A stretch of DNA of 64,000 nt from an uncultured Acidobacteriota bacterium (GTDB lineage Bacteria > Acidobacteriota > Vicinamibacteria > Fen-336): the NCBI GenBank assembly GCA_964574335.1, contig CAZNNH010000001.1:2928-66927 (forward strand), written 5' to 3'. The translations under genes and the position numbers were made by a program. The notes beneath the pieces are model-generated. The model searched no databases, had not been told where the DNA came from, and saw only the letters and a list, made by a program, of their open reading frames with translations. Positions within the stretch are counted from its first letter, which is position 1; every line of letters starts with the position of its first letter. Shown piece after piece: positions 5,041-53,530 of this stretch.

Positions 5041-5080
5041 AGAACCGGCGAAGCCGTTGTGGTCCTGGCGGCGGCCCGCC

Positions 5081-26608: not shown

Positions 26609-26764
26609 GGCGAAACCCCCAACTGCTCGCCAACGCGGTGCAAGGCACGTGCCGACTGTGGGTAAGCGCAGAAGCTGCCCCTCGGCTCGAAACAACACGC
26701 GCGCCTGCCCACCATCGAGGACGACCCGCCCGCTCCGCCGGACGGGCCTGGAACGACGCCAGGC

Positions 26765-32966: not shown

Positions 32967-33170
32967 CTTCCCGCGAACGGCGGGGGCTTGTCCTGCCGCC
33001 GTCGATCGCCCTCACCCTAGCAGGAGTTGGATGAACGGAAGATGACAGCCCGGCGTCCGCGCCCCCCTCTCCCGATTTTCTTCGCGTCAGCCAACCCTCC
33101 GCGAGCTTTTCGGTCTAACCTCTCTAGGAGAGACGTCGGCACGTCGTCCCCGTCCCGAAAGGAAGAACCC

Positions 33171-34217
33171 ATGCACACGCCTCGCCTGGTCGCGGCCATC
33201 GCCGTTCTCGCTTCGGGGTTGTCCCTCCCGGCCGGTGCCGCCGACGGCCCCTACCGTCTGCTGAAGGAGATCTCCATAGGCGGCGAAGGGGGCTGGGACT
33301 ATCTGTCCGTCGACGTTGCCGCCCGCCGCCTCTACGTGTCGCACGCCACCAAGGTCGTGGTCATCGACATCGATCGGGACGTGGTGGTCGGGGAGATCGC
33401 CCCGGCGCCGGGCGTGCACGGCATCGCGCTGGCCCCCGACCTCGGCCGCGCCTTCGTCAGCAACGGCCGGGAGTCGACGGCCAGCATCGTCGAGCTGAAG
33501 ACGCTGCAGATCGTGGGCACGGTGAAGACGGGGGAGAACCCGGACGCCATCCTCTACGAGCCGGTGCACCAGGAGGTCTACGCCTTCAACGGCCGCGGCA
33601 AGTCCGCCACCGTCTTCGACGCCAAGACCGGCGACGTGCGCGCCACCATCCCGCTCCCCGGCAAGCCCGAGTTCGCCGTCTTCGACGAGAAGGCGGGGCG
33701 CATCTACAACAACATCGAGGACGCAAGCCTCCTCGTGGCGATCGACCCCGAGAGCCACTCGGTGGTGGCGACCTGGCCGATCGCGCCGGGCGAGGAGGCG
33801 TCGGGCCTGGCCTTCGACCCGGAGGGCCGGCGGCTCTTCGTCGGCTGTGGCAACCGCCAGATGCTGATGGTCGACGCCACGGACGGCAAGGTCCTGGCCA
33901 GCGTGCCGATCGGACCCGGGGTCGACGCCAACGCCTTCGACCCCGGAACCGGCCTGGCCTTCGCGTCGAGCAGCGACGGCACCCTGACCGTGGCTCGGCC
34001 GGAGGGACGGGACAAGCTCACCGTGGTGCAGACGCTGGCGACCCCGAAGCGGTCGCGCACGATGACCCTCGACCCGAAGACGCACCGGCTCTACGTCTCC
34101 GCCGCCGAGTTCGCGCCGCCGGCCCAAGGACCCGACGGCAAGCCGCGGTGGCCGCAGGTGCTTCCCGGGTCGTTCAGGGTCGTGATCTACGAGATGACGG
34201 GGCCAGCCAACCCGTGA
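33171..34217 (+). CDS. YncE/YVTN-family beta-propeller protein
   Basis: GGEGGWDYL, VHGIALA, GENPDAILYEP, PGKPEFAV, RSRTMTLD. Confidence 0.9.
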   Translation: MHTPRLVAAIAVLASGLSLPAGAADGPYRLLKEISIGGEGGWDYLSVDVAARRLYVSHATKVVVIDIDRDVVVGEIAPAPGVHGIALAPDLGRAFVSNGRESTASIVELKTLQIVGTVKTGENPDAILYEPVHQEVYAFNGRGKSATVFDAKTGDVRATIPLPGKPEFAVFDEKAGRIYNNIEDASLLVAIDPESHSVVATWPIAPGEEASGLAFDPEGRRLFVGCGNRQMLMVDATDGKVLASVPIGPGVDANAFDPGTGLAFASSSDGTLTVARPEGRDKLTVVQTLATPKRSRTMTLDPKTHRLYVSAAEFAPPAQGPDGKPRWPQVLPGSFRVVIYEMTGPANP

Positions 34218-34263
34218 GCCTGCTCCATCTGGTGCCATAATCTGGAAGCGACCCCAACGCACC

Positions 34264-35694
34264 ATGAGGAACTCGGCTCCAAGGGTAGGTAGGATCGTCC
34301 TGGTCGGGGCGTTGGCGCTCTTCGCCGCCTGCGTTCGCTTCCACCCCGAGCCGCTCTCGCCGGACCGGTCCGCCGACCAGTTCGAGGCCCGCACCCTGGA
34401 CGCTGCCGGCCTCCGCTCGTACCTCGAGGCCACCACAGGGCACCCGCTGGAGGCCTGGCCGCTGCCCGCCTGGGACCTCTCCAGCCTGACCCTGGCTGCC
34501 TTCTACTACCAGCCCGACCTGGACGTGGCCCGGGCGCAGCTCGCGGTGGCACAGTCCGGAACACGGACCGCCGGCGAGCGGCCCAACCCGTCGATCGGAC
34601 TGACCCCCGGCTACAACGTGACCACCCGGACGCCGTCTCCCTGGATCCCGGTGGGGGTGCTCGACATCCCGATCGAGACCGCGGGCAAGCGCGGCCATCG
34701 GATGGCTCAGGCCCGGCATCTCTCCGAAGCCGCCCGGCTCACCCTGGCGTCGGTGGCCTGGCAGGTGCGCGGCCGGGTCCGCGCCAGCCTGGTGGCCTTG
34801 CAGTCCGCCCGTGGCACGGCCGCGCTGCTCCAGGAGCAGCAGGCGCTGCGGGACGAGATGGTCCGGCTGATGGAGCTGCAGTACCAGGCCGGCGCCATCT
34901 CGGGCTTCGATCTTCGGCTGGCCCGCATCGCCGCCGACCAGGCGCGGCTCTCCCGGCATGATGCCGAGCGCCGGCTTCTCGAGGCCCGGGTGGCGCTGGC
35001 CGACGTGCTGGGGGTGCCGGTGAGCGCCCTCGGTGATGTGGAGATCTCGTCGGCCGGGATGGGCTCGGCGCCTCTTCCGGAGCAGCTCCAGGACGCCCGG
35101 CGCCGGGCGCTCGTCTCTCGTGCCGACCTGCTTTCGGCGCTGGCCGAGTACGCCGCCAGCCAGTCGGCGCTGCAGCTCGAGATCGCCAAGCAGTACCCCG
35201 ACATCCAGATCGGTCCCGGCTACGAGTACGACCAGGGGGACGACAAGTGGTCGCTGGGCTTCACCCTCAGCCTGCCGCTCTTCAGCCGAAACCGGGGCCC
35301 GATCGCCGAGGCCCAGGCGCGGCGGCGCGAGGCGGCGGCCCGCTTCGAGGCGCTGCAGGCGCGGGTGCTGGCCGACGTCGACCGGGCGCTCGGCGGATAC
35401 ACCGCGGCCCGGCGCCAGCAGGCCGACGCGGAGGCGCTGCAGACGGAGCTTTTGCGCCAGCAAGAGGTGGCGGTGGCGAAGCTCGAGGCCGGCGAGATCG
35501 GCAAGAGCGAGCTGCTCGGCCAGCAACTGGAGCTGAGCCTCTCGAAGCTCTCGCGACTGGAGGCGCTCACCCGCTCGCTGCAGGCCCTGGCGGCGCTCGA
35601 AGACGCGCTGCAGAGCCCGCTCGGGGTGCCCGCCTCGTCTTGGGAAGCGCCGCCTCGCCTCGCCTCGACGACCCCGGGGGGTTCGACGCCATGA
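34264..35694 (+). CDS. TolC-family outer membrane factor
   Basis: Lipobox FAAC, two OEP repeats (PDL..ARA; EIAKQYPDI.IGPGY). Confidence 0.9.
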   Translation: MRNSAPRVGRIVLVGALALFAACVRFHPEPLSPDRSADQFEARTLDAAGLRSYLEATTGHPLEAWPLPAWDLSSLTLAAFYYQPDLDVARAQLAVAQSGTRTAGERPNPSIGLTPGYNVTTRTPSPWIPVGVLDIPIETAGKRGHRMAQARHLSEAARLTLASVAWQVRGRVRASLVALQSARGTAALLQEQQALRDEMVRLMELQYQAGAISGFDLRLARIAADQARLSRHDAERRLLEARVALADVLGVPVSALGDVEISSAGMGSAPLPEQLQDARRRALVSRADLLSALAEYAASQSALQLEIAKQYPDIQIGPGYEYDQGDDKWSLGFTLSLPLFSRNRGPIAEAQARRREAAARFEALQARVLADVDRALGGYTAARRQQADAEALQTELLRQQEVAVAKLEAGEIGKSELLGQQLELSLSKLSRLEALTRSLQALAALEDALQSPLGVPASSWEAPPRLASTTPGGSTP

Positions 35695-36761
35695 AGAGAG
35701 TCCCGCTGATCACGGCCGCCCTGGCCGTGGTGGTGCTGTCCAGCCTGGCCTGGGTGCTGCTGCGCCGGGCCGCTTCGGATCAGGAGGAGGCCGGTGTGGA
35801 CACCGTGGTTGCGGTGCGCCTCGGCCAGATCCAGCGCACCACGCTGCGGGCCTACGTGACGGCCTACGGGGTGGTCGAGCCCGAGCCGGCCGGGGCCCGC
35901 CCCGCCGCCGGCGCGCGGGTCACCGCCGCGGTGCCGGGCGTGGTCACCGAGGTCCGGTGCGTGGAGGGGCGCGCCGTCTCGAAGGGCGCCGTGCTGTTCC
36001 AGCTCGACAGCCGGGTGGCGGACGTGGCCGTCTCGAAGGCGCAGCAGGCGGTGGAGCTGGCCGAGACGACGCTTGCGCGGGAGCAGAAGCTGATCCAGGC
36101 AGAGGGCACGTCCCAGAAGCGGCTGGTCGAGGCCGAGTCGGCGCTTTCGGCGGCGCGCAGCGACCTGGCGGCGGCAGAGGCCCAGCGGTCGCTGCTCCGG
36201 GTCGAGTCCCCGCTGGCCGGCACCGTCACCCGGGTGAGCGTCGGGCCGGGCCAGGGCGTCGACCCGACCACGGTCCTGGCCGAGGTGGTCGCCCTCGACC
36301 GGCTGGTCGTCAACGTCGGGGTGCCGAGCGCCGAACGGGCCTCGGTCCATTCGGGAGCGACCGCCGAGGTCGTGGTGACCAACTTTCCGCCGCTCCAGGG
36401 CTCGGTCAGCGCCATCAGCCCCCGCGTCGACCCGGCCACCGGCACGGCGCCGGTGCGGGTCTCGCTGCCGGCCGGCTCCGGTCTGCTGCCCGGGCAGACG
36501 GCTCGGCTGCGCATCGTCAGCGAGGAGCACCGCGACTGCCTGGCGGCGCCGGCAGGGAGCGTGGTGAAGGACGAGAGCGGAGCCACCGTGGTGGCCCTGG
36601 TCCAGGACAACATCGCACGGCAGACGCCGGTGAAGACCGGCCTCCACGACGGTGACTGGATCGAGGTCGAGGGTGCGGGTCTGGCGGCCGGGATGGCGGT
36701 CGTCACCGAGGGCGCCTTCGGCCTGCCCGCCGAGACCAAGGTTCGCGTGTTGGCCCCGTGA
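35691..36761 (+). CDS. RND efflux periplasmic adaptor subunit
   Basis: AVPGVV....G..V.KG..LFQLD, SPLAGTV, PRVDPATGT. Confidence 0.9.
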   Translation: MKRVPLITAALAVVVLSSLAWVLLRRAASDQEEAGVDTVVAVRLGQIQRTTLRAYVTAYGVVEPEPAGARPAAGARVTAAVPGVVTEVRCVEGRAVSKGAVLFQLDSRVADVAVSKAQQAVELAETTLAREQKLIQAEGTSQKRLVEAESALSAARSDLAAAEAQRSLLRVESPLAGTVTRVSVGPGQGVDPTTVLAEVVALDRLVVNVGVPSAERASVHSGATAEVVVTNFPPLQGSVSAISPRVDPATGTAPVRVSLPAGSGLLPGQTARLRIVSEEHRDCLAAPAGSVVKDESGATVVALVQDNIARQTPVKTGLHDGDWIEVEGAGLAAGMAVVTEGAFGLPAETKVRVLAP

Positions 36762-39700
36762 CGAGCGCCCTGGGTCGGCTCAGCCTGCGCCACCGGCCGG
36801 CGATCGCCTTCATCACGGTGGCGCTGTGCCTGGCCGGCGTCTACTCGGCGCTGCGGACGCCCTCGTCGGTCTTCCCACAGACCGACTTCCCCCGTGTCGT
36901 GATCCTGGTCGACAACGGGGTGATGCCCGCGGGCGAGATGATGGCGAGGATCACCCGACCGATCGAGGAGTCCTTCAAGGACCTGCCCGGCTCGCGCGAG
37001 GTCCGCTCCACCACCGGGCGCGGATCGGCCGAGATCAGCGTCTTCTTCGACTGGCAGGTGGACATGGTCGAGTCGGAGCTCTACGTCCAGAGTCGCCTGG
37101 CCCAGATCCGCTCGGAGCTCCCGCCGACCGTGAGCACCAGCGTCTGGCGGCTGACCTTCTCGGCCTTCCCGATCATCGGGGTCAGCCTGACCGGTCCGGG
37201 GCGCAGCCAGACCGAGCTGTGGGAGACCGCCCGCTACGAGCTCAAGCCCCGCCTGCTGCGCATCCCCGGGGTGGCCCGGGTGGACCTGGTGGGGGGGCGC
37301 AGCCCCGAGTACCACGTGCTGGTCGACCCGCAGCGGCTGCTGGCGGCCGGCCTGAGCCTGCAGCAGGTGACCGAGGCCCTGGATCGCAACAACCTGGTGG
37401 CGCCCACCGGGATGCACGAGGAGAGCTACACGCTCTTTCTGACCGTGGTGGACGGACGCCTCCACGATGCTCAGGAGATCGAGGACCTGACCGTGGCCGT
37501 GTCGGGCGGCCACCCGGTCCGGATTCGCGACTTCGCGCGCGTCGAGCGCGGTCCCGAGCCGGTCTTCAACGTGGTGACCGCCGAAGGGGTACAGGCAGTG
37601 CTGCTCAACGTGCGTAGCCAGCCCGACGGCAGCACCCTCGAGATCGCGCGTGGCGTGGCGCAGGTGCTGCAGGAGGCCAAGCAGGACCTGCCCAAGGACC
37701 TGCACCTCGCCTACTACTACGACCAGTCGACCTTCGTGCGCGACTCCGTCGGCAGCGTTCGCGACGCGATCCTGTTCGGCCTGGTCCTGTCGGTGGTGAT
37801 CATCTACTTCTTCCTGAAGGACTGGGGGATCACCCTGACCGCCATCGTGGTGATCCCGGTGACGGTCCTGATCACGCTCTTGGCGATGAAGCTGGCCGGG
37901 CTGAGCTTCAACCTGATGACCCTGGGCGGTATCGCGGCGGCCATCGGCCTGGTGATCGACGACGCCATCGTGGTGGTGGAGGCGGTCTACGCCAAGGCCG
38001 CCGCCGGCCTGCCGCGCCTCGAGGCGATCCAGGCCGGGATGGGCGAGATCGTGGGGCCGCTGGTCGGCTCCACCCTCACCCCGGTGGTGGTCTTCATCCC
38101 GCTGGCGTTCCTGGAGGGGATCACCGGCGTCTTCTTCCGCGCGCTGGCGCTCACCATGGTGGTGGCCCTGCTGACCTCGCTCCTGCTGGCGGTGCTGGTG
38201 ACGCCAATGCTGGCCGCTTTGCTGCTGCGCGATCGGCCCCCGCTAGCCGGGGAAGAGGCGGCGCGCCGCGCGGAGGGCGGCTTCCTGCTGCAACGCCTGC
38301 TGCGCCTGTACGAGGTGGCGGTGCTCTGGGCGCTCCGCCACCGCTTCTTGACGGTGGGGGCGTGCGGGCTGGTGCTGCTGCTCGGGGTGGGCGTCTACCG
38401 TAACCTGGAGAGCGAGTTCCTGCCGCCCCTCGACGAGGGCGGCTTCGTGATCGACTACGTCGCCCCCTTCGGCACCAGCCTGGCCGAGACCGACCGCCAG
38501 CTCCTGCAGGCCGAGGAGATCCTGCGCAAGACCCCCGAGGTGGAGAGTTACTCGCGCCGCACCGGCGCCCGGCTGGCGCTCTCGATCGCCGAGCCCAACA
38601 CCGGCGACTTCCTGGTCAAGCTCAAGCCCGACCGCGAGCGGGAGACGGGCGCCGTCATCTCCGAGCTGCGCCGCCGCTTCCAGGCGGCCCTGCCCGGCAT
38701 CGAGTGGGAGTTCCCGGGCATCCTCTCCGACCTGATCGGTGACCTGATGTGGGCGCCCCAGCCGATCGAGATCAAGCTCTTCTCCACCGACGTACGCTTC
38801 CTGGAAGAAGAGGCGCCCAAGATCGCCGAGCAGGTCAAGCAAGTGCGGGGCGTGGTGGACACGCTGGACGGGCTGGTCTACGCCGGTCCCAGCCTGAGCC
38901 TGCGGGTGCGTCACGCCGAGGCCGAGCGCTTCGGCCTGACCGCGGACGACGTGGGCGCGGCGCTTCGGACGGCGATGCTGGGGCAGACCGCCTCGTCGGT
39001 GCTGGAGGGGGATCGGGTCATCGACGTCCGGGTGCTGGCCGAGCGCTCCGAAGTCGATCGCATCGCTCGGCTGCGCGAGCTGCCGCTGCGCACCCCCGGC
39101 GGGGGCGTCATCAAGCTCTCCCAGGTGGCCGAGATCGAGGAGACGCCGGGCCAGTTGGAGATGCACCGGGAGGGGCTGCGGCAGAATGTGGCCATCACGG
39201 CCCGCCTCGAGGGCCGCGACCTGGGCAGCGCGATGGCGGAGATCCGGGATCGGCTGAGCCGCGACACCTCGCTGCCGCCCGGAGCGATCGAGTACGGAGG
39301 GCTGTATCAGCAGCAGCAGGAGGCCTTTCGCAACCTGCTGATCGTGCTGGCGATGGCGGTCTTCCTGGTCTTCACCGTGCTGCTGGTCGAGTTCGGGTCG
39401 TTCTACGAGCCGCTGGCCATCGTCGCCGGCGCCGTGCTGGCCCTGTTCGGGACCGAGCTGGCGCTGTGGATCACCGGCACATCGCTCAACGTCGTCTCGC
39501 TGTTGGGGGCGATCATCGGGGTCGGCATCGTGGCCAAGAACGGGATCCTGATGCTGGACCTGGTCGAGCACCTGCTGGCCAGCGGCCAGAGCCTGGAGCA
39601 GGCGCTGGTCCACTCCGGCCATCGCCGCCTGCGCCCGGTGCTGATGACCTCGATGGCGGCGGCCTTCGGGATGCTGCCCCTGGCCTACGGCATCGGCAGC

Positions 39701-39895
39701 GGCGCCGACATGCTGCGGCCGTTGGCCATCGCCGTCATCGGCGCGCTCTCTTTCTCGGTGCTGCTGTCGCTGCTGGCGACGCCGACCGTCTACTACCTGC
39801 TGGTGCGCGCTACGGGAGGCGCCCGCCGTCTGACGGCCTCGGGGGACACGATCCCGAATCCCCGGCCACCGCAGGATTCGGGTCATGTCCCCTAG
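36758..39895 (+). CDS. RND efflux permease (AcrB/CusA family)
   Basis: 1045 aa, GLVIDDAIVVVE, FLP.LDEG, RRLRPVLMT, two TM blocks. The stop codon lies inside a REP-like palindrome. Confidence 0.95.
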   Translation: MTSALGRLSLRHRPAIAFITVALCLAGVYSALRTPSSVFPQTDFPRVVILVDNGVMPAGEMMARITRPIEESFKDLPGSREVRSTTGRGSAEISVFFDWQVDMVESELYVQSRLAQIRSELPPTVSTSVWRLTFSAFPIIGVSLTGPGRSQTELWETARYELKPRLLRIPGVARVDLVGGRSPEYHVLVDPQRLLAAGLSLQQVTEALDRNNLVAPTGMHEESYTLFLTVVDGRLHDAQEIEDLTVAVSGGHPVRIRDFARVERGPEPVFNVVTAEGVQAVLLNVRSQPDGSTLEIARGVAQVLQEAKQDLPKDLHLAYYYDQSTFVRDSVGSVRDAILFGLVLSVVIIYFFLKDWGITLTAIVVIPVTVLITLLAMKLAGLSFNLMTLGGIAAAIGLVIDDAIVVVEAVYAKAAAGLPRLEAIQAGMGEIVGPLVGSTLTPVVVFIPLAFLEGITGVFFRALALTMVVALLTSLLLAVLVTPMLAALLLRDRPPLAGEEAARRAEGGFLLQRLLRLYEVAVLWALRHRFLTVGACGLVLLLGVGVYRNLESEFLPPLDEGGFVIDYVAPFGTSLAETDRQLLQAEEILRKTPEVESYSRRTGARLALSIAEPNTGDFLVKLKPDRERETGAVISELRRRFQAALPGIEWEFPGILSDLIGDLMWAPQPIEIKLFSTDVRFLEEEAPKIAEQVKQVRGVVDTLDGLVYAGPSLSLRVRHAEAERFGLTADDVGAALRTAMLGQTASSVLEGDRVIDVRVLAERSEVDRIARLRELPLRTPGGGVIKLSQVAEIEETPGQLEMHREGLRQNVAITARLEGRDLGSAMAEIRDRLSRDTSLPPGAIEYGGLYQQQQEAFRNLLIVLAMAVFLVFTVLLVEFGSFYEPLAIVAGAVLALFGTELALWITGTSLNVVSLLGAIIGVGIVAKNGILMLDLVEHLLASGQSLEQALVHSGHRRLRPVLMTSMAAAFGMLPLAYGIGSGADMLRPLAIAVIGALSFSVLLSLLATPTVYYLLVRATGGARRLTASGDTIPNPRPPQDSGHVP

Positions 39896-39998: not shown

Positions 39999-42137
39999 TC
40001 ACTCCGGGACGGGGAAGCCCCGGTCGCGCATCAGCGCCTCCATCCCGGCGTCGCGGCCCCGGAAGGCGCGGTAAGCCTCGGCCGGGTCCACCGCGTTGCG
40101 CGGCGCGAACAGGTGCTCGACCAGCCTCTTGGCCAGCGCCTTGTCGTAGAAGCCGCCCGGGGCCTCGGCGAATGCCTCGGCCGCGTCCGCGGTCAGGACG
40201 TCGGCCCACATGTAGCCGTAGTAGCCGGCGGCGTAGCCCTCGCCGGAGAAGACGTGGGTGAACTGCGGGCTCCGGTGCCGCATCACCACCTGGTGCGGCA
40301 TCCCCAGCTCGGCCAGGGCCTTCTTCTCGTAGGCGTCGACGTCGAGACCGGCCGGGTCCATGGTGTGGTACCGCATGTCCAAAAGGGCCGAGGCCAGGTA
40401 CTCGGTGGTCAGGAAGCCCTGGTTGAAGGTCCGCGCCTTCTTGATCTTGGCCACCAGCTCCGCCGGCATCGGCTTGCCGGTCTCATGGTGGACCAGGAAG
40501 CGCTCGATCACCGGGTCGGTGAGCAGCCAGCGCTCCAATAGCTGGGACTGCAGCTCGGTGTAGTCGCGGACGCCGCCGTTGAGGGTCGGGTACTCGACGT
40601 TCGACAGCAGGGCGTGCAGGGCGTGGCCGAACTCGTGGAAGAGGGTGGTGGCGTCGTCCCACGAGACGAGCACCGGCTCCCCGGGTGCCGCCTTGATGAA
40701 GTTGGCGTTGTTCGAGCCCAGCACGGTCACTTCGCCGTCGAAGGTCTCGTGGCCGCGGTAGGTGGCCGCCCAGGCCCCCGAGCGCTTCCCGGTCCGGGCG
40801 AAGGGATCGAGGTACCAGAAGCCGACGTGACGACCGGAGTCGCGGTCCTTGACCTCGAAGACCGTGACGTCGTCGTGGTAGACGGGGACCGATCCGGGCG
40901 CCACCGGCTCGAAGGTCAGACCGAAGACCTCGCCGGCCACGAAAAACAGCGCCTGGCGGAGCTTGTCGAGCTGCAGGTACTGCTTGACCTCACCCGAGTC
41001 CAGGTCGTACTTGGCCTTGCGGACCTTCTCGGCGTAGTAGCGGTAGTCCCAGGGCTCGATGGTGACGCCCTTCCCCTCGGCGTCGGCGATCGCCTGCATG
41101 TCGGCGACCTCCTCCTTCACCCGGAGAAGGGCCGCCGGCCACACCGCCTCCATCAGGGCGAAGGCCCGCTCCGGGGTCTTGGCCATCCGGTTCTCCAGCC
41201 GCCAGGCGGCGTAGCTCGGGTAGCCGAGCAGCCCGACCCGTTCGTGCCGGAGCTGCAGGATCTCGGCGACCAGGGCGTTGTTGTCGTGCTCGTCACCGTT
41301 GTCGCCCCGCGAGTAGTAGGTCCGCCACACCTTCTCGCGCAGCGCCCGCTGGTCGGAGAAAATGAGGAACGGGTCCATCGAGGAGCGGGTGTTGGTCACG
41401 GCGTACTCGCCCGGGTGTCCCCGCTCGGCGGCGGCGGCCGCCGCCGACTTGACGAAGGACTCCGGCAGCCCGCCGAGCTGCTCCTCGGTCAGGTAGGTGA
41501 CGTAGCCCTCCTCGTCCGCCAGCACGTTGTTGCCGAAGGCGGTGTGCAGCTCGGCCAGGCGCTGGTTGATCTCCGCGTAGCGGAGCTTCTTCTCCCCCTC
41601 GAGCGTGGCGCCGTTGCGGGCGAAGCCGTCGTAGGTCAGGAGCGCCAGGCGCTGCTGGTCCGGGCGCAGGGCCTTCGTCTCCTCGGACTCGTAGGCCGCC
41701 TTGACCCGTGCGAACAGCTCCGGGTTCTGGGTGATCTTCGAGTTGAACTCCGCCAACCTGGGGGCCATCTCCCTCTGGATGGCCCGGAACTCCGGCGTGG
41801 AACGATTGCCGCTCCAGATGCGCCAGTAGGTGAAGACCCGGTCCAGGTCGCGGCCGGACCGCTCCAGGGCCAGGACGGTGTTCTCGAAGCTGGGCGGATC
41901 GGCCTCGGCGGCGATGATCTCGATCTCCTTGAGCTGCCGGGCCATGGCGATCTCGAGGGCCGGCTTCAGCGCCTCGAGGTCCATCTCGTCGAAGGCCGGG
42001 ACGCCGTCGTAGGGGCCGGTCCACGGCGCGAGCAGGACGTTCCCTTGCTTCACCGGCTCCTCCGCCTGCGCCGGCGCCGAGAATGCGACGGCCATCAAGA
42101 TGACGACGACGACGATCGGTCTCAGGGTTCCGGGCAT
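39999..42137 (-). CDS. M3 family metallopeptidase (dipeptidyl carboxypeptidase-like)
   Basis: FHEFGHALH zincin motif, E..SQLLE, F.HVF.G.GYAAGYY.Y.WA; signal peptide. Confidence 0.95.
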   Translation of the reverse strand: MPGTLRPIVVVVILMAVAFSAPAQAEEPVKQGNVLLAPWTGPYDGVPAFDEMDLEALKPALEIAMARQLKEIEIIAAEADPPSFENTVLALERSGRDLDRVFTYWRIWSGNRSTPEFRAIQREMAPRLAEFNSKITQNPELFARVKAAYESEETKALRPDQQRLALLTYDGFARNGATLEGEKKLRYAEINQRLAELHTAFGNNVLADEEGYVTYLTEEQLGGLPESFVKSAAAAAAERGHPGEYAVTNTRSSMDPFLIFSDQRALREKVWRTYYSRGDNGDEHDNNALVAEILQLRHERVGLLGYPSYAAWRLENRMAKTPERAFALMEAVWPAALLRVKEEVADMQAIADAEGKGVTIEPWDYRYYAEKVRKAKYDLDSGEVKQYLQLDKLRQALFFVAGEVFGLTFEPVAPGSVPVYHDDVTVFEVKDRDSGRHVGFWYLDPFARTGKRSGAWAATYRGHETFDGEVTVLGSNNANFIKAAPGEPVLVSWDDATTLFHEFGHALHALLSNVEYPTLNGGVRDYTELQSQLLERWLLTDPVIERFLVHHETGKPMPAELVAKIKKARTFNQGFLTTEYLASALLDMRYHTMDPAGLDVDAYEKKALAELGMPHQVVMRHRSPQFTHVFSGEGYAAGYYGYMWADVLTADAAEAFAEAPGGFYDKALAKRLVEHLFAPRNAVDPAEAYRAFRGRDAGMEALMRDRGFPVPE

Positions 42138-42303: not shown

Positions 42304-44832
42304 CTACGGCTGGAACGCGCGGGGGTTGTAGCGCTCGGCGCGGCCGCGGGCGAGCTGGAGCTTTCGCTCCAGCCGCTGCAGCGCGGCGGCGTCCTTCTGC
42401 GGATCGAGCGGGCCCAGCCGCTTCTCGTACAGCCTGACCAGGGCCTCGGCCACCCGGGCGTCGAACGGCATGTGGTGGAGCCACACCTCCCACTCGTCGG
42501 TCAGGTCCTCCAGGCTCTCGCCGTAGTCGTCGCTCTTCAGCAGGGCGTGGTTGGCGACGGCCACCCCCGGGTATCCGTAGGGATCCAGGCCCAGGGTGGT
42601 CTTCGAGTCGCTGAAGAAGCCGTCCCCGCCGTACATCGGGTACTCGAGGCCGACCGGCCTCTGGTTGCAGCCTCAGGTGAAGCCCGAAAGGGCCTGCACG
42701 AGCTGCCGGACCGCGGCGGCCTCGTCGCCCAGCTTGCGACGGCCGAGCCCGCTGTAGAGGGCCGGGATCGACTCGTCCGCGCGGTCCAGGCGGTCGAGGC
42801 CCTTGCGGATCTCGCCGCGACCGAGCTCCACCACCCCAACCTCCGCCAGCGTCTTGTCGCTGAGCTGGCCCTCGGCGTCGATCTTGCCGGCGAGCTCGGA
42901 GAGCAGCTCGAAGCGGCGCTCGCCGATGAGGTACTCGATGCTGGACTGAAGCGCCCAGTCCTGCTGGGCCCAGCGCTCGTCGTGGTACTGCCCCCAGAGA
43001 TGGATCCCCTCGTCGAAGTCCTCGCCGAAGTATCGACGGATGGAGCCGGCGACGGCGTCGGGATCGAACCGCGCTGCGACCTCGTCCCGGAGCCCGGGGA
43101 GCTCGGAGACCAGGATCGTCACCGGGAAGAAGAACTCACCCGTGTCGCCCGCCGCCCGCAGCAGGTGGGGGGCCGAGACGGTCCCCTCCGGCGCGTCGAA
43201 GTAGTGGAGCTGGAAGTGGAGGTATCCCTCGCTCAGCCGGGACACTCGGCGGCGGATGTCCTCGGGCAGCCGGTCTTCCTTGTCCGGTGGATAGGCGAGG
43301 GCGAGGGTGGTGGCCTGCTTCTTCCACGCCTTGATGAAGTCCTTCTGCAGGTACTCCACCCAGATGTCCTGGGTGGCCACGTCGTAGGTCACGAAGGTGT
43401 CCAGCGCGTCGTCGTAGCCCACGATCACGAAGACGTGGGCGGGCACGTAGACCAGCACCGGGAAGCCGGCGTCGATCAGGGCCTTGATGTCGTCGATCCC
43501 GGCCATCGGAAGGTAGTCGTGGCGGAAGCCCTCCTGGTCGGCCAGCCAGCTCTGGTTCACGGCGAAGGTCCCGCTGGTGAGACCGGTGATCCTCTCTCCG
43601 ATCACCCGGGCGCTCACGTTGGCACCCCAGTACCGCATGGCCAGGGCCAGCGAGTTGGGCGCGCAGTAGGCGGCCTTGTACTCGGTGCGGGTCTCGATGC
43701 CGGGCAGCACCACCCGCCGGCCTCCTCCGTTGCGGGCCAGGTTGTCCAGGAACCGGCTGGCCTTCTTGACCCGCTCGGCGTTGGCCGTGTACTTGGCCAC
43801 CACCCGCCGGAAGCCCCGCTCCGCCTTGGCCGCGTCGCCCAGCTTGTGGGAGAGCAGGGCCGCCCGGTACTGGAGGTACGAGGCCACCTGCTCGCTCGGC
43901 TGCTTCTCGAGGCCGATCTCGTACGCGTAGACCGCCGGCCCGGTGTGGGCGGCTCGCTCCAGGCTCCGGCCCAGGGCCAGGAACAGCTCGCCGGTGTGGC
44001 CGGAGGTCACCGCCAGGACGAGGCCGGCCGCCAGGTTCATGCCGAGGGCCAGCCCGGCCCGCTTCAGCTTCGCCGCCACCCCCTGCGGAGCGATGATGAA
44101 GAAGAGCAGGAACACAGGCCACCAGGTGCCGACCAGGAAGTGGCCCAGCATCAGCGGCGCCATCACCGCCTCCCAGCCGGCCCCGGTGGCGGCCCCCGCC
44201 TGGAACCCGGGGATCGCGATCAGGGCCTCCACGGCGGCCACCCACCCCAGATGCGCCCAGACCAGGGTCAGGCCGAGGAGCACCACCTGCCCTCCCGTGG
44301 CCCGCGGCCAGAAGCGGCCCAGCAAGCCCCCCGCCGCACCCCCCGACAGCGCCAGGAAGAACCCGGCGGTCGTCACCCGCATGGCGGCGTAGCTGTCGTC
44401 GAAGAGCACCGGCCACGCCGTCGAGGCGAGCCGGTCCATCAGCAGCAGGTAGACGACCATGCTCGCGGTCCCCAGCGTCCCGCCGATCAGCGTGCCCCCG
44501 GCGATGCCGGCCAGGGTGTGCCGGTAGGTCCCCGTCTCGCGAGGCGGGGTCGGGTGCGTCTCGCGGTAGCGCGCATGGGGGCCACGCAGCGCGAGGAACA
44601 GGGCGGTCCCCGCCACCAGGTGCACGCCGGTCAGGAGCAGGGCGGACCAGTACCACTCCACGCGCCAGAAGACCGCGAAGGCGATGAGGGCCGTGCCCAG
44701 GACGAACGACGCCAAGCCGACGGCCCAGCCCGCTCGTCGATGGCCGAAGCGGCCGAGCGACGCCCCGGCGGCGGGCCCCGAGCAGCACAGGCCCCCCACC
44801 ATCGTCATCGGGACCAGCCAACCCGGGTGCAT
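42304..44832 (-). CDS. Membrane/TPR/peptidase C39-like protein with in-frame TGA (candidate selenoprotein, 842 aa)
   Basis: ORFs 42673..44832 and 42304..42636 are in frame across a TGA at 42673-42675. YCAPNSLALAMRYWG (Cys) and PAHVFVIVGYDD (His) form a C39-like catalytic pair; a SECIS-like hairpin follows the TGA. Confidence 0.75.
42646..42661 (-). promoter_or_regulatory. Candidate bacterial SECIS element
   Basis: mRNA UGA-GGCUGCAACCA(11 nt)-GAGGCC-GGUC-GGCCUC. Spacing and GGUC loop match the E. coli fdhF SECIS layout. Confidence 0.65.
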
Positions 44833-48040: not shown

Positions 48041-50512
48041 CTAGGCGGCGCTCCGGCGCGCGAGGGTCGGTCGCTCCGGGTCCAGGATCCGATAGGCCGC
48101 CAGCTTCACACGGTCGTTGATCGGGAACCAGGCCAGGGCGTAGACCCACACCGCCAGGGCCCAGCCCCAGCCGATCGGGGGCATGAACCATCCGAAGACG
48201 GCGAAGCAGGTGGCCACGATCTGCGTCCCGATCACCGCCCACAGCAGCACCGGCGAAGGCCGCGTGGACCAGAACGGCCCCCGGGTGCGGGTGACGAAGA
48301 CGGTGAGGTGCCCGGCCACCGAGAGCTTCAGGTAGATGAGCGTCTGCAGCACGTCCCGGCTCAGGTGGAACACCCGCTCCCCGAGGTAGAACAGGCCGAA
48401 GGAGGCGAAGACGCCGGCCACGCCCAGGACGGTGGCGATCCCGAGAACGTTGCGCATGTTCCAGGCCTCGGGCTCTTCCGAGTACTTCACGCGGTCGTAG
48501 GCGATCGACAGGATGGCGCCGTCGTTGAGCAAGGCCAGCAGGACGATCATGACCGCCGTGACCGGGTAGAAGTTGAAGACCAGGATGGAGAGGGTCATGA
48601 ACAGCAGCACCCGGATCGTCTCCGCGATCCGGTAGATCGCGTAGCTGTTCATCCTCTGGAAAATCTTGCGGCTCTCCTTGATGGCGTCGATGATCACCGA
48701 GAGGCCGGGGGTCAGCAGCACCATGGCGGCGGCGGCGCGGGCGGCGTCGGTGGCCCCCGACACGGCGATGCCGCAGTCGGCCTTCTTCAGGGCCGGCGCG
48801 TCGTTCACCCCGTCTCCGGTCATCCCCACGATGTGGTGTCGCTTCTGCAGCACCTCGACGATGTGGAACTTGTGCTCCGGAAAGACCTGGGCGAACCCGT
48901 CGGAGGCCTCGATGGCCTCGTCGAGCTGGGCGCCCTGATGGTGGGTGGTCTCGCCGAACAGGGTGGCGTCCAGGATATTGCGTCCGAGCCCGACCTGCCC
49001 CGCGATCTCCTTGCCGATGGCGACCTGGTCTCCGGTCACCATCTTGACCCGCACGCCCATGCGCCGGGCCTGCTCGATGGTGGTCTTCGAGTCCTCGCGC
49101 GGCGGGTCGGAGAGGGCCAGCACGCCCAGGAAGCGCCAGTCGCCTCCCCCGTCGGCGCGGGCCACGCCCAGGGCCCGGAACCCGCGGCGGGCGAACTGAT
49201 CGACCGCCTCCTCGACCTCCGCCCGTAGACCTGCGGAGACGCCGGCCAACGCCAGGATCACCTGGGGCGCGCCCTTGCTGGCGCGCAGCTCGGCCCCGTC
49301 CGGGGCCCTGACCGCGGCCTCGGTGCGCTTTCCGACCGGATCGAACGGGCGGAAGCGCGTCACCTCGTGGCCCCTCAGGGCCTGGGCGTCGTGGACGCCG
49401 GTGAGCACGGCCTGATCGATGGCGTCACCGGCCTCGGAGCGCGACGCCAGCGCCGCCGCCAGGATCACCTGGTCGGGCGTGGATCCGCCAGCGCAGAAGG
49501 TGTCGGTCAGGGTCAGCTTGTTCTGAGTGAGGGTCCCCGTCTTGTCGGAGCACAGGACGTCCATCCCGGCCAGCTCCTCGATGGCCACCAGCCGGCTGAC
49601 GATGGCCTGCTTGCGGGCCAGAAGCCGCGCCCCGACCGCCATCGTCACCGAGAGGACGGTGGGCATGGCGACCGGGATCGCGGCCACCGTCAGCACCAGG
49701 GCGAACTGCACCGTGGTGATCAGCCGGTCCCCCCGGAACAACGCCACCACGATGATCAGGGCGACCAGCACCGCAGCCAGGGCGATCAGGTAGTCGCCGA
49801 TCTTCAGGACCGCCTTCTGGAAGTGACTCACGGTGTCGGCCGACTCCACGAGCTGGGCGGTCTTGCCGAAGTAGGTCTTGGCGCCGGTGGCGGAGACCAG
49901 CGCGTCGATCTCGCCCCGCTTGAGGATGGAGCCTGCGTATAGGGTCTCGCCCGGCTTCCGGGTGACAGGCAGCGACTCCCCGGTGAGGGCGGCCTGGTCC
50001 ACCTCCACCGACTCGCCGTCGAGGAGGACCACATCGGCGGGGATGACGTCTCCCAGCCTCAGCCGGACCCGGTCGCCCGGGACCAGCTCCCGCGCCGGCA
50101 GGTCCCGCCAGGCGCCGTCACGGCGCACGCGGGCCTGGAGCGCCAGGTTGGCCTTGAGCGCGGCGATCGCGTTCCCGGCCTGGTACTCCTCCCAGAAGCC
50201 GACCACGGCGTTGGCCAGCAGCAGCACCAGGATGATGATGAAGTCGGCCCAGTGCCGCACCACCGCCGACAGGATGGCGGCGGCCTCGATCATCCACGGG
50301 ATCGGCCCCCAGAAGTGGCCGAGAAACTCCAAGAGAGGGTTGCGCTTCTTCTCCGGAAGCTCGTTGGCGCCGTACTCTTCGAGGCGGCGGGCGGCCTCCT
50401 GCTGGGACAGCCCCTCGAGCGAGGTCTTCAGCTTGGACAGCACGTCCTGCAGGTTCGGCGCGGCTTGGGGCGCTTTCGCTTCCCCTCCGTCATGTAACAG
50501 GTCTTCGGCCAT
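48041..50512 (-). CDS. Plasma-membrane proton-efflux P-type ATPase (type IIIA)
   Basis: DQAALTGES, AIPVAMP, CSDKTGTLT, SKGAPQVI, MVTGD, MTGDGVNDAPALKKAD, YRIAET. Confidence 0.95.
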   Translation of the reverse strand: MAEDLLHDGGEAKAPQAAPNLQDVLSKLKTSLEGLSQQEAARRLEEYGANELPEKKRNPLLEFLGHFWGPIPWMIEAAAILSAVVRHWADFIIILVLLLANAVVGFWEEYQAGNAIAALKANLALQARVRRDGAWRDLPARELVPGDRVRLRLGDVIPADVVLLDGESVEVDQAALTGESLPVTRKPGETLYAGSILKRGEIDALVSATGAKTYFGKTAQLVESADTVSHFQKAVLKIGDYLIALAAVLVALIIVVALFRGDRLITTVQFALVLTVAAIPVAMPTVLSVTMAVGARLLARKQAIVSRLVAIEELAGMDVLCSDKTGTLTQNKLTLTDTFCAGGSTPDQVILAAALASRSEAGDAIDQAVLTGVHDAQALRGHEVTRFRPFDPVGKRTEAAVRAPDGAELRASKGAPQVILALAGVSAGLRAEVEEAVDQFARRGFRALGVARADGGGDWRFLGVLALSDPPREDSKTTIEQARRMGVRVKMVTGDQVAIGKEIAGQVGLGRNILDATLFGETTHHQGAQLDEAIEASDGFAQVFPEHKFHIVEVLQKRHHIVGMTGDGVNDAPALKKADCGIAVSGATDAARAAAAMVLLTPGLSVIIDAIKESRKIFQRMNSYAIYRIAETIRVLLFMTLSILVFNFYPVTAVMIVLLALLNDGAILSIAYDRVKYSEEPEAWNMRNVLGIATVLGVAGVFASFGLFYLGERVFHLSRDVLQTLIYLKLSVAGHLTVFVTRTRGPFWSTRPSPVLLWAVIGTQIVATCFAVFGWFMPPIGWGWALAVWVYALAWFPINDRVKLAAYRILDPERPTLARRSAA

Positions 50513-50682
50513 CGGTGCTCCTTTCTGCTGCGGCAGCCGGAGCCGTGGGTGTGGTAATGAGACAGGCGTGACTTCATCATCGCCCGCCTGGAGAGACGGT
50601 GTCAAAAGCCGCCGGGCGGCGGGCGTCCTGTGGCCGTCCGATCGGCGATCAGCGAGACGACGTCTTCACAGAGACGACACCC

Positions 50683-53358
50683 TCACTGAGGCAGCGTCTG
50701 CGAGCCGGTCACCTCGAAGCTTGCGGTCACCGCGCCGGGGAACTCGTCCGGCTGGGCGCCGCCGACCGCCACGGTGTACGAGCCGGGCACGATCACCCGC
50801 TCGCCCTTCTCGTTCACCTGACCCAGGGTGCGGGGATCGATCTGGATCCGGACGTGCGCCGTCGCACCGGCCTCGACGTGGACGCGCTGGAACCCGGCCA
50901 GGGTCCGCAGCGGCGTCAGCGCGGCCTTCGGCTGGGTCAGGTAGACCTCGACCACCTCGTCGCCGGCGCGGCTGCCAGCGTTTCTGACATCGACCTCGAG
51001 GCTCACCGGCTCACCCGCCGCCAGCGACGGGCTCGACAGCTTCAGCTTGGCGTACTGGAACTCCGAGTAGCTCAAGCCGAAACCGAAGCCGTAGAGGGGC
51101 TTGCCCTTGAAGTAGCGGTAGGTGCGGTCGGCCATCGAGTACTCCTCGAACGGCGGAAGCTGGTCGACCGACGCGTAGAAGGTGAGGGGGAGCCGTCCGG
51201 CGGGGTTGTTGTCGCCGGCCAGGGTCTCGGCGATGGCGGTGCCGCCCTCCTCGCCGGGGTACCAGGCCTCGAGGACGGCACCGGCGTAGCCGTGCTCCTC
51301 GGGGACGGCCAGGGCGCTGCCGCTGCTCAAGACGACGACCAGCGGCCGGCCGGCGGCGTGGAGGGCCTTCAGCAGCTCGCGCTGGACCCGGGGCAGGCGG
51401 ATGTCGGTGCGGTCTCCGCCCTCGAACCCCGGCAGCTCCACGCGCATCTCCTCGCCTTCGAGCTGCGGCGAGAGGCCCACGAACGCCACCACTACGTCGG
51501 CCTTCTTGGCCACCGCCACCGCCTCGTCGACCAGGGCGGTGACCGGAGGCTGCCAGGTGAGGTCGATGCCGGCCGCCGCGGTGCTGTGCATGTACTCGAG
51601 ACGGATGGCGTGCGGCTCGGTGCCGTCGAAATGCAGGGCTGCCTCGGTCTTCCCCTCCTCGCTGCTGTCGGCGATCTGCTTGTCGTCGAGGTAGAGGCGG
51701 AACTGCTCGTGGCTCTCGCAGGCGTAGCAGAAGGCCACCCGCGCCCCCAGCTTGTAGTCGCCCGCGGCGGAAGGCACCAGGGTGCCGGTCCAGCGCACCG
51801 AGAAGTCGTTGCGCTGCAGCCCGGCCACCGGGACCGCCTTGTCCCAGTTGAAGTTGACGCTGCGATCCACGCGGACCGCCACCGGCTTGCCGCTGAAGTC
51901 GGGGGTGCTGAAGTACTCGCCGGTCAGCCCCGGCTGGCCGTCGGCGCTGCGCAGCGCCGTGTGCGCGATGGGAACCGCGAAGCCCTCCGCCAGGCTGGAC
52001 CCCTGGGCGTAGAGGACGGTCCGGTCCTTGAACCGGCGCTCGATGCCGGCGATCGGCGAGACCGGGTCGGGGGGGGTGCCGTTGTAGTTGCCCTGCAGCG
52101 ACTGGACCAGCTCGGCGGTGGGTCCGACCACGGCGATGGTGCGGGCCTCGGGCGACAGCGGCAGCAGCCCGCCCTCGTTCTTCAGCAGCACGATCGCCTT
52201 GCGGGCCGCCTCGAGCGCCATCGCCCGGTGCTGGGCCGAGTCGACCTCCGAGAACGGGATGCGGCCATAGGCGTAGGACTCGGCCGGGTCGAACATCCCC
52301 AGGCGGAAGCGGGCCGTGAACAGCCGCGTCAGGGCCCGGTCCAGGTCGGCCTCGGTGACCAGGCCCTGCTTCAGCGACTCCGCCAGCGTGTCGTAGGCCT
52401 TGGCCTGGCCGTACTGGCACTCCAGGTCGGTGCCGGCCTTGAGGGCGGCGGCGGCGGCGTGGGGGTAGTCGGGGGCGAACTTGTGCCCGGTGGCCACGTC
52501 CCCGACGGCGGCGCAGTCGGAGACGACGTAGCCGTCGAACCCCCAGGCGGCGCGCAGGTGGTCCTCGAGCAGCATGGTGCTGGTGCAGGCCGGGAAGCCG
52601 TCGACGGCGTTGTAGGCGCACATCACCGACTGGGCGTGCGCCTGGGTGATCGCGGCCCGGAAGGCCGGCAGGTAGGTGTCTTCGAGGTCGTGGGCAGAGA
52701 CGTCCACGTTGAAGCCGTGGCGCAGCGGCTCCGGCCCGCTGTGGACGGCGAAGTGCTTGGGTGTGGACACGACCTTGAGGTGCTTGGGGTCGTCGCCCTG
52801 CATGCCGGAGACGAAGGCCACGGCCATCCGGCCGGTGAGGAACGGGTCCTCGCCGTAGGTCTCCTGCCCCCGTCCCCAGCGCGGATCGCGGAAGATGTTC
52901 ACGTTGGGCGCCCAGAAGGTGAGCCCGAAGAACATCTCGTGGTGGTCCTCGCGTTTCGCTTGGTGGTACTTGGCCCGCGCCTCGGTGGAGATGGTCTCGG
53001 CCATCCGGTGGACCAGGTCGGTGTCCCAGGTGGCGGCCATCCCGATCACCTGCGGGAAGTTGGTGGCGTAGCCGCCGAAGGCGACGCCGTGCAGGCTCTC
53101 GTTCCACCAGTCGTAGCGGGGCACGCCCAGCCGCGGGATGGCGGCGGCGTGGTCACGCATCTGGGAGACCTTCTCCTCGAGCGTCATGCGCGAGACCAGG
53201 TCCTCGACGCGCCTCTCGATGGGCGCCGACACGTCGAGATAGGCCGCGTCAGCGGGCGCGGCCGGGGTCTGGGCCGCGGCGGGCGAACCCGCCGCCCAGG
53301 CCAGGAGCAGGGCCAAAGGCAGTCCGAAATGGGCAGAAATCGAAGCATGACGCAGCAA
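50683..53358 (-). CDS. GH3 beta-glucosidase/xylosidase with PA14 and Fn3-like domains
   Basis: WNESLHGV, RDPRWGRGQETYGEDP, KHFAVH, YVVSDC nucleophile, LEGEE, AWYPGEEGG, PLYGFGFGLSYS; TTG start with RBS. Confidence 0.95.
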   Translation of the reverse strand: MLRHASISAHFGLPLALLLAWAAGSPAAAQTPAAPADAAYLDVSAPIERRVEDLVSRMTLEEKVSQMRDHAAAIPRLGVPRYDWWNESLHGVAFGGYATNFPQVIGMAATWDTDLVHRMAETISTEARAKYHQAKREDHHEMFFGLTFWAPNVNIFRDPRWGRGQETYGEDPFLTGRMAVAFVSGMQGDDPKHLKVVSTPKHFAVHSGPEPLRHGFNVDVSAHDLEDTYLPAFRAAITQAHAQSVMCAYNAVDGFPACTSTMLLEDHLRAAWGFDGYVVSDCAAVGDVATGHKFAPDYPHAAAAALKAGTDLECQYGQAKAYDTLAESLKQGLVTEADLDRALTRLFTARFRLGMFDPAESYAYGRIPFSEVDSAQHRAMALEAARKAIVLLKNEGGLLPLSPEARTIAVVGPTAELVQSLQGNYNGTPPDPVSPIAGIERRFKDRTVLYAQGSSLAEGFAVPIAHTALRSADGQPGLTGEYFSTPDFSGKPVAVRVDRSVNFNWDKAVPVAGLQRNDFSVRWTGTLVPSAAGDYKLGARVAFCYACESHEQFRLYLDDKQIADSSEEGKTEAALHFDGTEPHAIRLEYMHSTAAAGIDLTWQPPVTALVDEAVAVAKKADVVVAFVGLSPQLEGEEMRVELPGFEGGDRTDIRLPRVQRELLKALHAAGRPLVVVLSSGSALAVPEEHGYAGAVLEAWYPGEEGGTAIAETLAGDNNPAGRLPLTFYASVDQLPPFEEYSMADRTYRYFKGKPLYGFGFGLSYSEFQYAKLKLSSPSLAAGEPVSLEVDVRNAGSRAGDEVVEVYLTQPKAALTPLRTLAGFQRVHVEAGATAHVRIQIDPRTLGQVNEKGERVIVPGSYTVAVGGAQPDEFPGAVTASFEVTGSQTLPQ

Positions 53359-53530
53359 GGGATCCCTCCGTGGCAGGTAGACGGGGACAGGATACTCGAA
53401 GGGGGTGAGGATCTCTAGGCTTCCGGGGGCCGCCGGATTCCGATCCAGGCGACGGTCCACCAGAGGGACAGCGCCGCCGTCCCCGTGAAGACCCATCGAA
53501 AGGCCGGGCGGCCCCCCGAGGGAGCGGAGG

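Follow-up and report, generated by a model that had tools for sequence, protein, structure and literature searches.

The window analysed here, 64,000 nucleotides (nt) of contig CAZNNH010000001.1 from an uncultured Acidobacteriota bacterium, carries on its minus strand (42304-44832) what is best read as a single gene for an 842-residue selenoprotein, a membrane protein with tetratricopeptide repeat (TPR)-like helices and a C39-like cysteine-peptidase domain. Canonical recoding of UGA720 by SelB and a selenocysteine insertion sequence (SECIS) is well supported by comparison of related sequences, and we put the probability of the joint reading (one gene, one 842-residue selenoprotein, SelB/SECIS recoding and an accessory arm bearing selenocysteine (Sec) and Cys) at about 0.85. 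On this reading the recoding is canonical, and the novelty lies in the family of the protein and in where Sec is placed. SelB with Sec-tRNA(Sec) would bind a predicted hairpin with a GGUC loop that begins 11 nt past UGA720, Sec would be inserted, and 122 more codons would be read; failed insertion would leave a 719-residue form lacking the C-terminal domain.

The original prediction, made from the letters of the window alone, had described a 719-codon open reading frame (ORF) continued in the same frame for 122 codons after TGA, with Sec720 in a T-U-G-C motif beside Cys722 in an 842-residue product; re-reading of the window gives the same layout. Past the TGA the frame reads GGC TGC AAC CAG AGG CCG GTC GGC CTC GAG TAC CCG ATG. 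All 12 codons between TGA and this ATG, which lies 13 codons past TGA, have G or C in the third position, and no Shine-Dalgarno sequence precedes the ATG, both as had been claimed. Over the 122-codon extension the GC fraction is 0.97 at third (GC3) and 0.42 at second (GC2) codon positions, matching the real genes of this 70% GC window, and the ratio of nonsynonymous to synonymous substitution rates (dN/dS) against a relative (L058) is 0.51.

Conservation of the TGA and the reading frame

A search with the 842-residue readthrough product as query gave 119 homologues, whose lengths are bimodal: some 35 span the query completely (100%; 838-905 residues), and about 70 cover 85% and end at one shared alignment column (...G[C/F/Y][T/L]-stop). 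DNA was fetched for 27 genome loci and 30 metagenome loci; 52 loci, including the window, comprise the C-terminal domain as well as the part that precedes the site. The two halves of the protein are in one frame in all 52. Exactly one internal stop, at the homologous site, is present in 33 loci, and it is TGA in all 33, never TAA or TAG; the remaining 19 are seamless fusions without an internal stop. The real terminators of the TGA-bearing genes are, by comparison, TAA in 14, TGA in 9 and TAG in 8 cases. The TGA is kept in independent assemblies at 91% (L028), 73% and 61% (L058/L059, L049) and, in many others, 40-55% identity to the window. A recurrent TGA followed by a conserved C-terminal extension, which the original prediction had proposed as the pattern to look for in homologues, is thus what was found, and in the homologues lacking TGA the extension, a conserved domain, is joined on in frame. 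Reassignment of the genetic code, with UGA read as Trp or Gly, was considered and is excluded, because the window and its relatives use TGA as an ordinary stop: it ends many window genes and 9 of 31 Sec-type genes.

A profile search of 1.84 billion representative proteins shows that the family is small, with 75 clusters at E <= 1e-30. Its carriers are mostly Desulfobacterota, a Sec-rich group (PMC13188914), and they include the Olavius Delta 1 symbiont (L023), whose heavy use of Sec is documented (PMC1976440). Two loci carry distant phylum labels: the junction DNA of L013, from a metagenome-assembled genome (MAG) labelled Solirubrobacteraceae, is identical over the 60 nt compared to that of L006 (Syntrophobacteraceae), and the proteins are near-identical, which suggests a mis-binned contig or a very recent transfer.

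A covarying hairpin follows the TGA

The window hairpin, GAGGCC-GGUC-GGCCUC, starts 11 nt past the UGA and has its loop at 17 nt, exactly where it had been placed. Published constraints on the bacterial SECIS (bSECIS; PMC13188914, Fig. 2) are a loop of 3-9 nt, an upper stem of at least 4 base pairs (bp), a G in the first two loop positions, a distance of 16-37 nt from UGA and a free energy (dG) <= -7.5 kcal/mol. The window hairpin satisfies them (loop GGUC, 6 bp, 17 nt, dG -11.9 kcal/mol), and its exact geometry (a tetraloop 17 nt from the UGA on a stem of 6 bp or more) recurs at none of 421 other positions tested in the gene.

Comparison with relatives was made on an alignment (A2) of 28 distinct sequences, gapless from TGA-3 to TGA+45, with stem columns 17-23 and 28-34 enclosing loop columns 24-27. 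Standard pairing is found in 82.7% of cells, a share that drops to 28-55% if the 3' side is shifted by 1-3 columns, and 36 cells have changed on both sides, as opposed to 2-14 in the shifted registers. None of 500 column shuffles equalled the pairing or the covariation score, and RNAalifold recovered the same helix. The only invariant columns are the T, G and A of the stop codon and the second loop nucleotide, G25; GGUC is the commonest loop and AGUU the next. Individual clades have stems of their own (GGGAGUC/GACUCCC, GAACGUC/GACGUUC, GGGCGUC/GACGCCC, UUUGGACC/GGUCUAAA, GGACC/GGUCC and GGGCC/GGCCC), and the peptides encoded by the hairpin differ as well (ESVDSP, RPVGPQ, GPDGLN, EPGGSK), so that what is conserved is the structure rather than the peptide. 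Conservation of the hairpin among TGA-bearing homologues, on which the original prediction had been made to depend, is therefore confirmed by covariation.

All four bSECIS constraints are met in 22 of 31 distinct Sec loci, the window included; in the remaining nine, most of them of the Desulfobulbaceae/Desulfocapsaceae type, a single internal mismatch interrupts what is otherwise the same hairpin. At loci with a sense codon the hairpin is lost in L016 (TGT), L003 and L052 (TGG) and L061 (TGG), and only a remnant is left in L021 (TGC). L060 (TGG), in line with a recent change, retains the stem but has the loop UGUC.

One divergent locus from an uncultured Desulfovibrionaceae (L019, 5477-5524) has its TGA two residues further along (...LRYG-U-GPEDED), without a vicinal Cys, followed by a different and weaker hairpin (loop GGC, 21 nt from UGA, -7.8 kcal/mol). 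This Sec site may have evolved independently or been shifted.

Sec, Cys and the vicinal Cys at the site

Cys occupies the exact Sec position at three loci, L016/L047 (GCI-C-HFRRAPLGP) and L021 from Desulfogranum japonicum (SCT-C-HYQRDPVGPQ), where Sec forms beside them read GCT-U-HYRRxPVGPQ; Cys-bearing homologues, sought as support for Sec when the site was first proposed, therefore exist. In about 33 of 36 Sec forms, as tallied from junction peptides, a further Cys is found two positions before or after Sec. It stands either upstream, as C-x-U (GCT-U, GCL-U, RCI-U), or, where that Cys is absent, downstream, as U-x-C (U-G-C in the window; U-I-C, U-A-C and U-T-C elsewhere). Since the vicinal Cys switches sides between clades, selection appears to act on the vicinal Sec/Cys pair as such, that is, on a centre able to form a selenenylsulfide. 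In a neighbour-joining tree, Sec forms extend across most Desulfobacterota clades, with Cys, Trp and motif-less forms nested among them; the Fibrobacterota/Chitinispirillaceae outgroup consists of motif-less forms.

Architecture of the proposed selenoprotein and its upstream partner

An AlphaFold2 model built with 49 homologues has a predicted local distance difference test (pLDDT) score of 86.3 and a predicted template modelling (pTM) score of 0.76; the domains are given in Table 1. Lys plus Arg counts over the 49 homologues are 2.2-5.8 for loops 1, 3, 5 and 7 of the membrane domain and 0.3-1.2 for loops 2, 4 and 6. Eight transmembrane (TM) helices and this positive-inside pattern would put the last 560 residues, and with them the peptidase domain and Sec, in the periplasm. 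The sole Pfam match of the protein is PF13529 (Peptidase_C39_2; 30.7 bits, cut-off 24). Foldseek aligns the alpha/beta domain with solved peptidase domains of the ComA, PCAT1 and LahT types (ComA 3k8u and 5xe9, PCAT1 7n87, and 6mpz) at TM-scores of 0.67-0.72 and probability 1.0, and the rest of the protein with TPR solenoids. The catalytic pair had been placed at about Cys390 and His466; C390 and H466, together with several Asp residues, are invariant in the 49 homologues. The C39-like selenoprotein has neither a PF03412 match nor an ATP-binding cassette (ABC) domain. The PA2778 family model (NCBIfam NF033920) gives 15.6 bits (E 0.008), far from its curated cut-off of 150, so that the protein is not a member, and a search of the Protein Data Bank with a sequence profile retrieved designed TPR proteins only. 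The linker of residues 721-746 varies in length and sequence in non-Sec homologues.

The 912-residue product of the gene directly upstream is a distant collinear paralogue of the selenoprotein (E 1e-4 over the TPR plus C39-like regions). It has Leu/Thr and Tyr/Gly where the selenoprotein has its catalytic Cys and His, and is on these grounds a pseudo-peptidase partner. The partner gene lies immediately upstream in every locus with enough flanking sequence, a constancy that suggests an obligate pair of one active and one dead member. No gene is conserved downstream of the selenoprotein gene, and no conserved bacteriocin or ABC gene was found near the related loci.

Weighing the reading and its alternatives

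Several observations count against the selenoprotein reading. Taken alone, the window hairpin is unexceptional: its folds have no extra stability over dinucleotide shuffles (z = -0.17 for 81 nt and -0.48 for 48 nt), and the minimum free energy fold of the 48-nt segment lacks the proposed stem and pairs the UGA region differently. A generic bSECIS-qualifying hairpin lies behind 30% of codon positions in the gene (every second codon, 42673-44832), and one at least as stable as that of the window behind 17% of the positions tested. A permissive Rfam search around the site found no match to a SECIS family, only noise, and a search of the whole window at gathering threshold found no match. None of selA, selB, selC, selD or tRNA-Sec was found in the 64-kb window, and a scan of it for coding-flanked TGA codons followed by a hairpin found no second selenoprotein gene. 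Sec falls in a low-confidence, disordered linker, and the model is uninformative on any contact with the active site. Real TGG (Trp) codons stand at the site in L003, L052, L060 and L061, Trp is also found there in database proteins P0011, P0014, P0018 and P0062, and the motif is wholly missing in many full-length homologues. The core function can thus do without this residue, an uncommon situation for a catalytic Sec.

Other candidates from the window scan proved to be antisense frames or adjacent genes, which left Sec720 as the sole convincing site. The possibility that the Trp-bearing database proteins are artefacts of translation with code 4 was also rejected, as the DNA has genuine TGG.

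The points about the hairpin bear on how it can be recognized rather than on the comparison above. It had been called a textbook SECIS; this holds in that it meets the bSECIS constraints and is conserved in relatives, whereas in the window alone it is no better than chance at 70% GC. As the single-sequence fold is not significant, the significance of the hairpin comes from comparison with relatives, and with bSECIS-type hairpins behind 30% of codons a SECIS-first prediction would here be swamped by false positives. In a genome of 70% GC, single-sequence SECIS prediction is uninformative and comparative analysis informative.

Homologues with Trp had been named in the original prediction as evidence that would speak against Sec. 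They do exist, at the four loci above, but they are a minority nested among Sec forms, which argues that Sec is not indispensable rather than that the TGA is a plain stop. TGA to TGG is the sole transition that restores a sense codon at the site, and Trp codons in several lineages suggest that, when Sec is lost, the attached C-terminal domain matters more than the selenium chemistry. The same codons furnish the main argument for selenium-independent programmed readthrough, in which the hairpin would aid near-cognate decoding of UGA (for example by tRNA-Trp) and yield a mixture of 719- and 842-residue products without Sec. Trp is the commonest sense replacement (the four TGG loci; P0011, P0014 and P0018), and the failure to find sel genes in the 64-kb window would also fit. 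However, the geometry of the hairpin, its GGUC loop and its invariant loop G are those expected of a bSECIS that binds SelB; a Cys two residues away in nearly all Sec forms and Cys at the site itself in three loci suit the chemistry of Sec and not that of Trp; and the carriers belong mostly to a phylum rich in Sec. Readthrough without selenium is therefore improbable, though it survives better than the other alternatives.

Marginally less probable still is an arrangement of two separate genes, with TGA a true stop and the C-terminal domain made as its own protein of about 80-110 residues by re-initiation or translational coupling. Gene callers do predict such small ORFs, among them one of 80 residues at L058 (12287-12529), about 20 clusters of 76-128-residue orphan proteins in the 1.84-billion-protein library match the C-terminal domain only, and the window itself offers the ATG 13 codons past TGA. 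Against this stand the single frame in 52 of 52 loci, the exclusive use of TGA in genes whose terminators draw on all three stops, and the 19 seamless fusions. Moreover, an in-frame ATG, GTG or TTG between TGA and the conserved domain is lacking in 11 of 30 distinct Sec-type loci, and Shine-Dalgarno-like sequences are almost never present past the TGA. The window ATG is replaced by GCG in the 91%-identical L028, and in L058 (73% identity) the first ATG past TGA falls within the conserved domain, so that the 80-residue ORF called there would be a truncated domain. The orphan proteins are mis-called post-UGA extensions and represent a systematic annotation error in this C39-like selenoprotein family; further examples are P0304, P0309, P0313-P0315, P0317, P0319-P0321, P0324-P0326 and P0329-P0331. 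In RefSeq the Desulfopila protein is a 749-residue 'C39 family peptidase', cut at the TGA. Finally, a pseudogene or sequencing error, that is, a chance nonsense mutation in a normally 842-residue gene, has a negligible probability: full-length homologues without the stop exist, but the same TGA recurs in independent assemblies from 91% to about 40% identity and the coding signature persists beyond it (GC3 and dN/dS as above).

Under the selenoprotein reading, U720 and C722, carried on a flexible arm in the periplasm, would join reversibly as a selenenylsulfide. This arm may serve the membrane-anchored cysteine peptidase (or transpeptidase) as an accessory element for redox chemistry or ligand binding by which the enzyme is regulated or protected, and the selenoprotein probably acts in a complex with its dead upstream paralogue. 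A bolder version, which we regard as conceivable and rather doubtful, would make this the first selenoprotein of the papain/C39 superfamily and one half of an obligate pair with the pseudo-peptidase, with the arm shuttling redox equivalents or acyl groups to and from Cys390, or with selenium supply gating the full-length enzyme (842 as opposed to 719 residues). If so, the recurrent changes from Sec to Trp would mark the selenium arm as a removable regulatory module.

Features of the window and neighbouring genes

Table 1. Location of the selenoprotein gene, its parts and adjacent features in the window (nt positions unless given as residues, aa)
Feature	Position	Strand	Basis or remark
Selenoprotein gene, whole	42304-44832	-	one gene, 842 aa including U720 and C722
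Codons 1-719, ending ...ALSGFT	42676..44832	-	ATG 44832-44830; gene callers: 719-aa 'C39 family peptidase'
In-frame TGA, predicted Sec720, motif T-U-G-C	42673..42675	-	TGA at homologous site in 33/52 loci
Predicted bacterial SECIS hairpin GAGGCC-GGUC-GGCCUC	42646..42661	-	11 nt after UGA, loop 17 nt from UGA; spacer 42672-42662, GAGGCC 42661-42656, GGTC 42655-42652, GGCCTC 42651-42646
Post-UGA extension, 122 codons	42307..42672	-	same frame; stop TAG 42304-42306
N-terminal membrane domain, 8 predicted TM helices (aa 3-276)	44005..44826	-	AlphaFold2 helices; hydropathy and positive-inside pattern, 49 homologues
TPR-like helices	aa 280-367	-	AlphaFold2 model
C39-like papain-fold alpha/beta domain (aa 373-514)	43291..43716	-	Pfam PF13529, Foldseek
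Catalytic Cys390 codon	43663-43665	-	in C39-like domain
Catalytic His466 codon	43435-43437	-	in C39-like domain
Helical repeats	aa 524-718	-	AlphaFold2 model
Flexible, disordered linker directly after Sec720 (aa 721-746), with Cys722; also encodes the predicted SECIS	42595..42672	-	AlphaFold2 model, pLDDT <50
Conserved C-terminal four-helix domain (aa 756-840)	42313-42567	-	AlphaFold2 helices, pLDDT 85-93
Partner gene, 912 aa	44833..47571	-	stop codon abuts selenoprotein ATG; TM, TPR and C39-like
RND efflux system (outer-membrane factor and AcrB-type pump)	33027-39892	+	neighbour gene, looks unrelated

Pfam and NCBIfam were run on 12 neighbouring genes of the window. Apart from the efflux system in Table 1, the neighbours (39999-42137, 48041-50605, 50683-53496, 20899-23016 and 24959-26698, all on the minus strand) comprise a Dcp-type M3 peptidase, a P-type ATPase, a GH3 glycosidase with a PA14 insert, a VIT-VWA protein and an S15 X-Pro dipeptidyl peptidase, and likewise look unrelated. 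The best named relatives of the Dcp gene are from Acidobacteriota MAGs (74-77% identity), which by itself makes an acidobacterial host probable for a family found mostly in Desulfobacterota. ARAGORN called two tRNAs, Gly-GCC (79 nt, 5066-5144, minus strand) and Phe-GAA (52677-52749, plus strand), both inside strongly coding ORFs, the latter within the GH3 gene; no tRNA came up in the Rfam gathering search, and both calls are probably false positives.

Relation to known systems

To our knowledge, prokaryotic selenoproteins are with few exceptions metal enzymes or small proteins resembling thiol oxidoreductases. The present family extends the uses of selenium to a large, polytopic membrane protein that combines a cysteine-peptidase domain with Sec placed in a disordered linker. 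The Sec, Cys, Trp and deleted forms constitute a natural series for asking what Sec adds, and cultured carriers are at hand in Desulfopila sp. IMCC35008 (Sec form) and Desulfogranum japonicum DSM 18378 (Cys form). The reading also corrects the annotation of dozens of entries cut at 705-758 residues and of about 20 clusters of 80-130-residue orphan ORFs.

That no selenoprotein family of this architecture had been described, as the original prediction supposed, is borne out by its absence from NCBIfam, of which release 20 has no model for either part of the protein, and from a 2026 inventory of 119 prokaryotic selenoprotein families, which lists no peptidase, C39 or TPR membrane family (PMC13188914, Table 1). 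The paper on the Olavius Delta 1 symbiont has no such family and mentions 15 unclassified TGA-containing sequences (PMC1976440); that on BSepDB makes no mention of a C39-like membrane selenoprotein. None of the sources covered describes a selenoprotein in the C39/papain superfamily, and full-text literature searches for a C39-like selenoprotein family returned nothing, with a prior listing among unvalidated candidates elsewhere possible.

The closest match for the recoding signal is fdhF of E. coli, whose element (TGA-CACGGCCCATC-GGTTGCA-GGTC-TGCACC) is 100% identical in the fdhF genes of 5419 genomes; this verifies the 11-nt spacer and GGUC loop with which the window had been compared. Both have an in-frame UGA, an 11-nt spacer, a short stem and a GGUC tetraloop within the coding region, the window reading TGA-GGCTGCAACCA-GAGGCC-GGTC-GGCCTC. 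However, the 6-bp stem of the window lacks the bulged U of fdhF, which brings its loop 1 nt nearer to the UGA, and binding of SelB is only predicted for the window. The proteins are unrelated: the Sec of fdhF ligates Mo in the active site, whereas that of the window protein lies in a disordered linker.

With the C39 domains of ComA, PCAT1 and LahT (and PF13529) the window protein shares the papain-like fold and the invariant Cys and His. It differs from them in having no ABC transporter, in carrying the domain in a TPR-like solenoid behind an eight-TM anchor, and in the predicted periplasmic location of that domain, those of the ComA/PCAT1/LahT type being cytoplasmic.

Vicinal CxU, UxC or UGC motifs are known from predicted selenoproteins that include the thioredoxin-like Sec.1 and Sec.2, the UGC-containing TlpA family, DUF1573 and the SO_0444 Cu/Zn efflux transporter (PMC13188914, Table 1). 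These have the two-residue spacing of Sec and Cys seen in the window family, with both orientations within one family, and some are exported or membrane proteins of anaerobes. Their motifs lie in thioredoxin-like folds or metal sites, whereas that of the window protein is found in an unstructured linker joining two helical domains of a peptidase-like protein.

In the GCUG tail of mammalian thioredoxin reductase and in SELENOK and SELENOS, Sec stands beside or near Cys on a flexible, disordered segment able to swing to a partner or to a second active site. The resemblance to the arm proposed here is by analogy only, the proteins being non-homologous: Sec stands at the very C-terminal end of the mammalian proteins, whereas in the window protein it precedes a folded domain.

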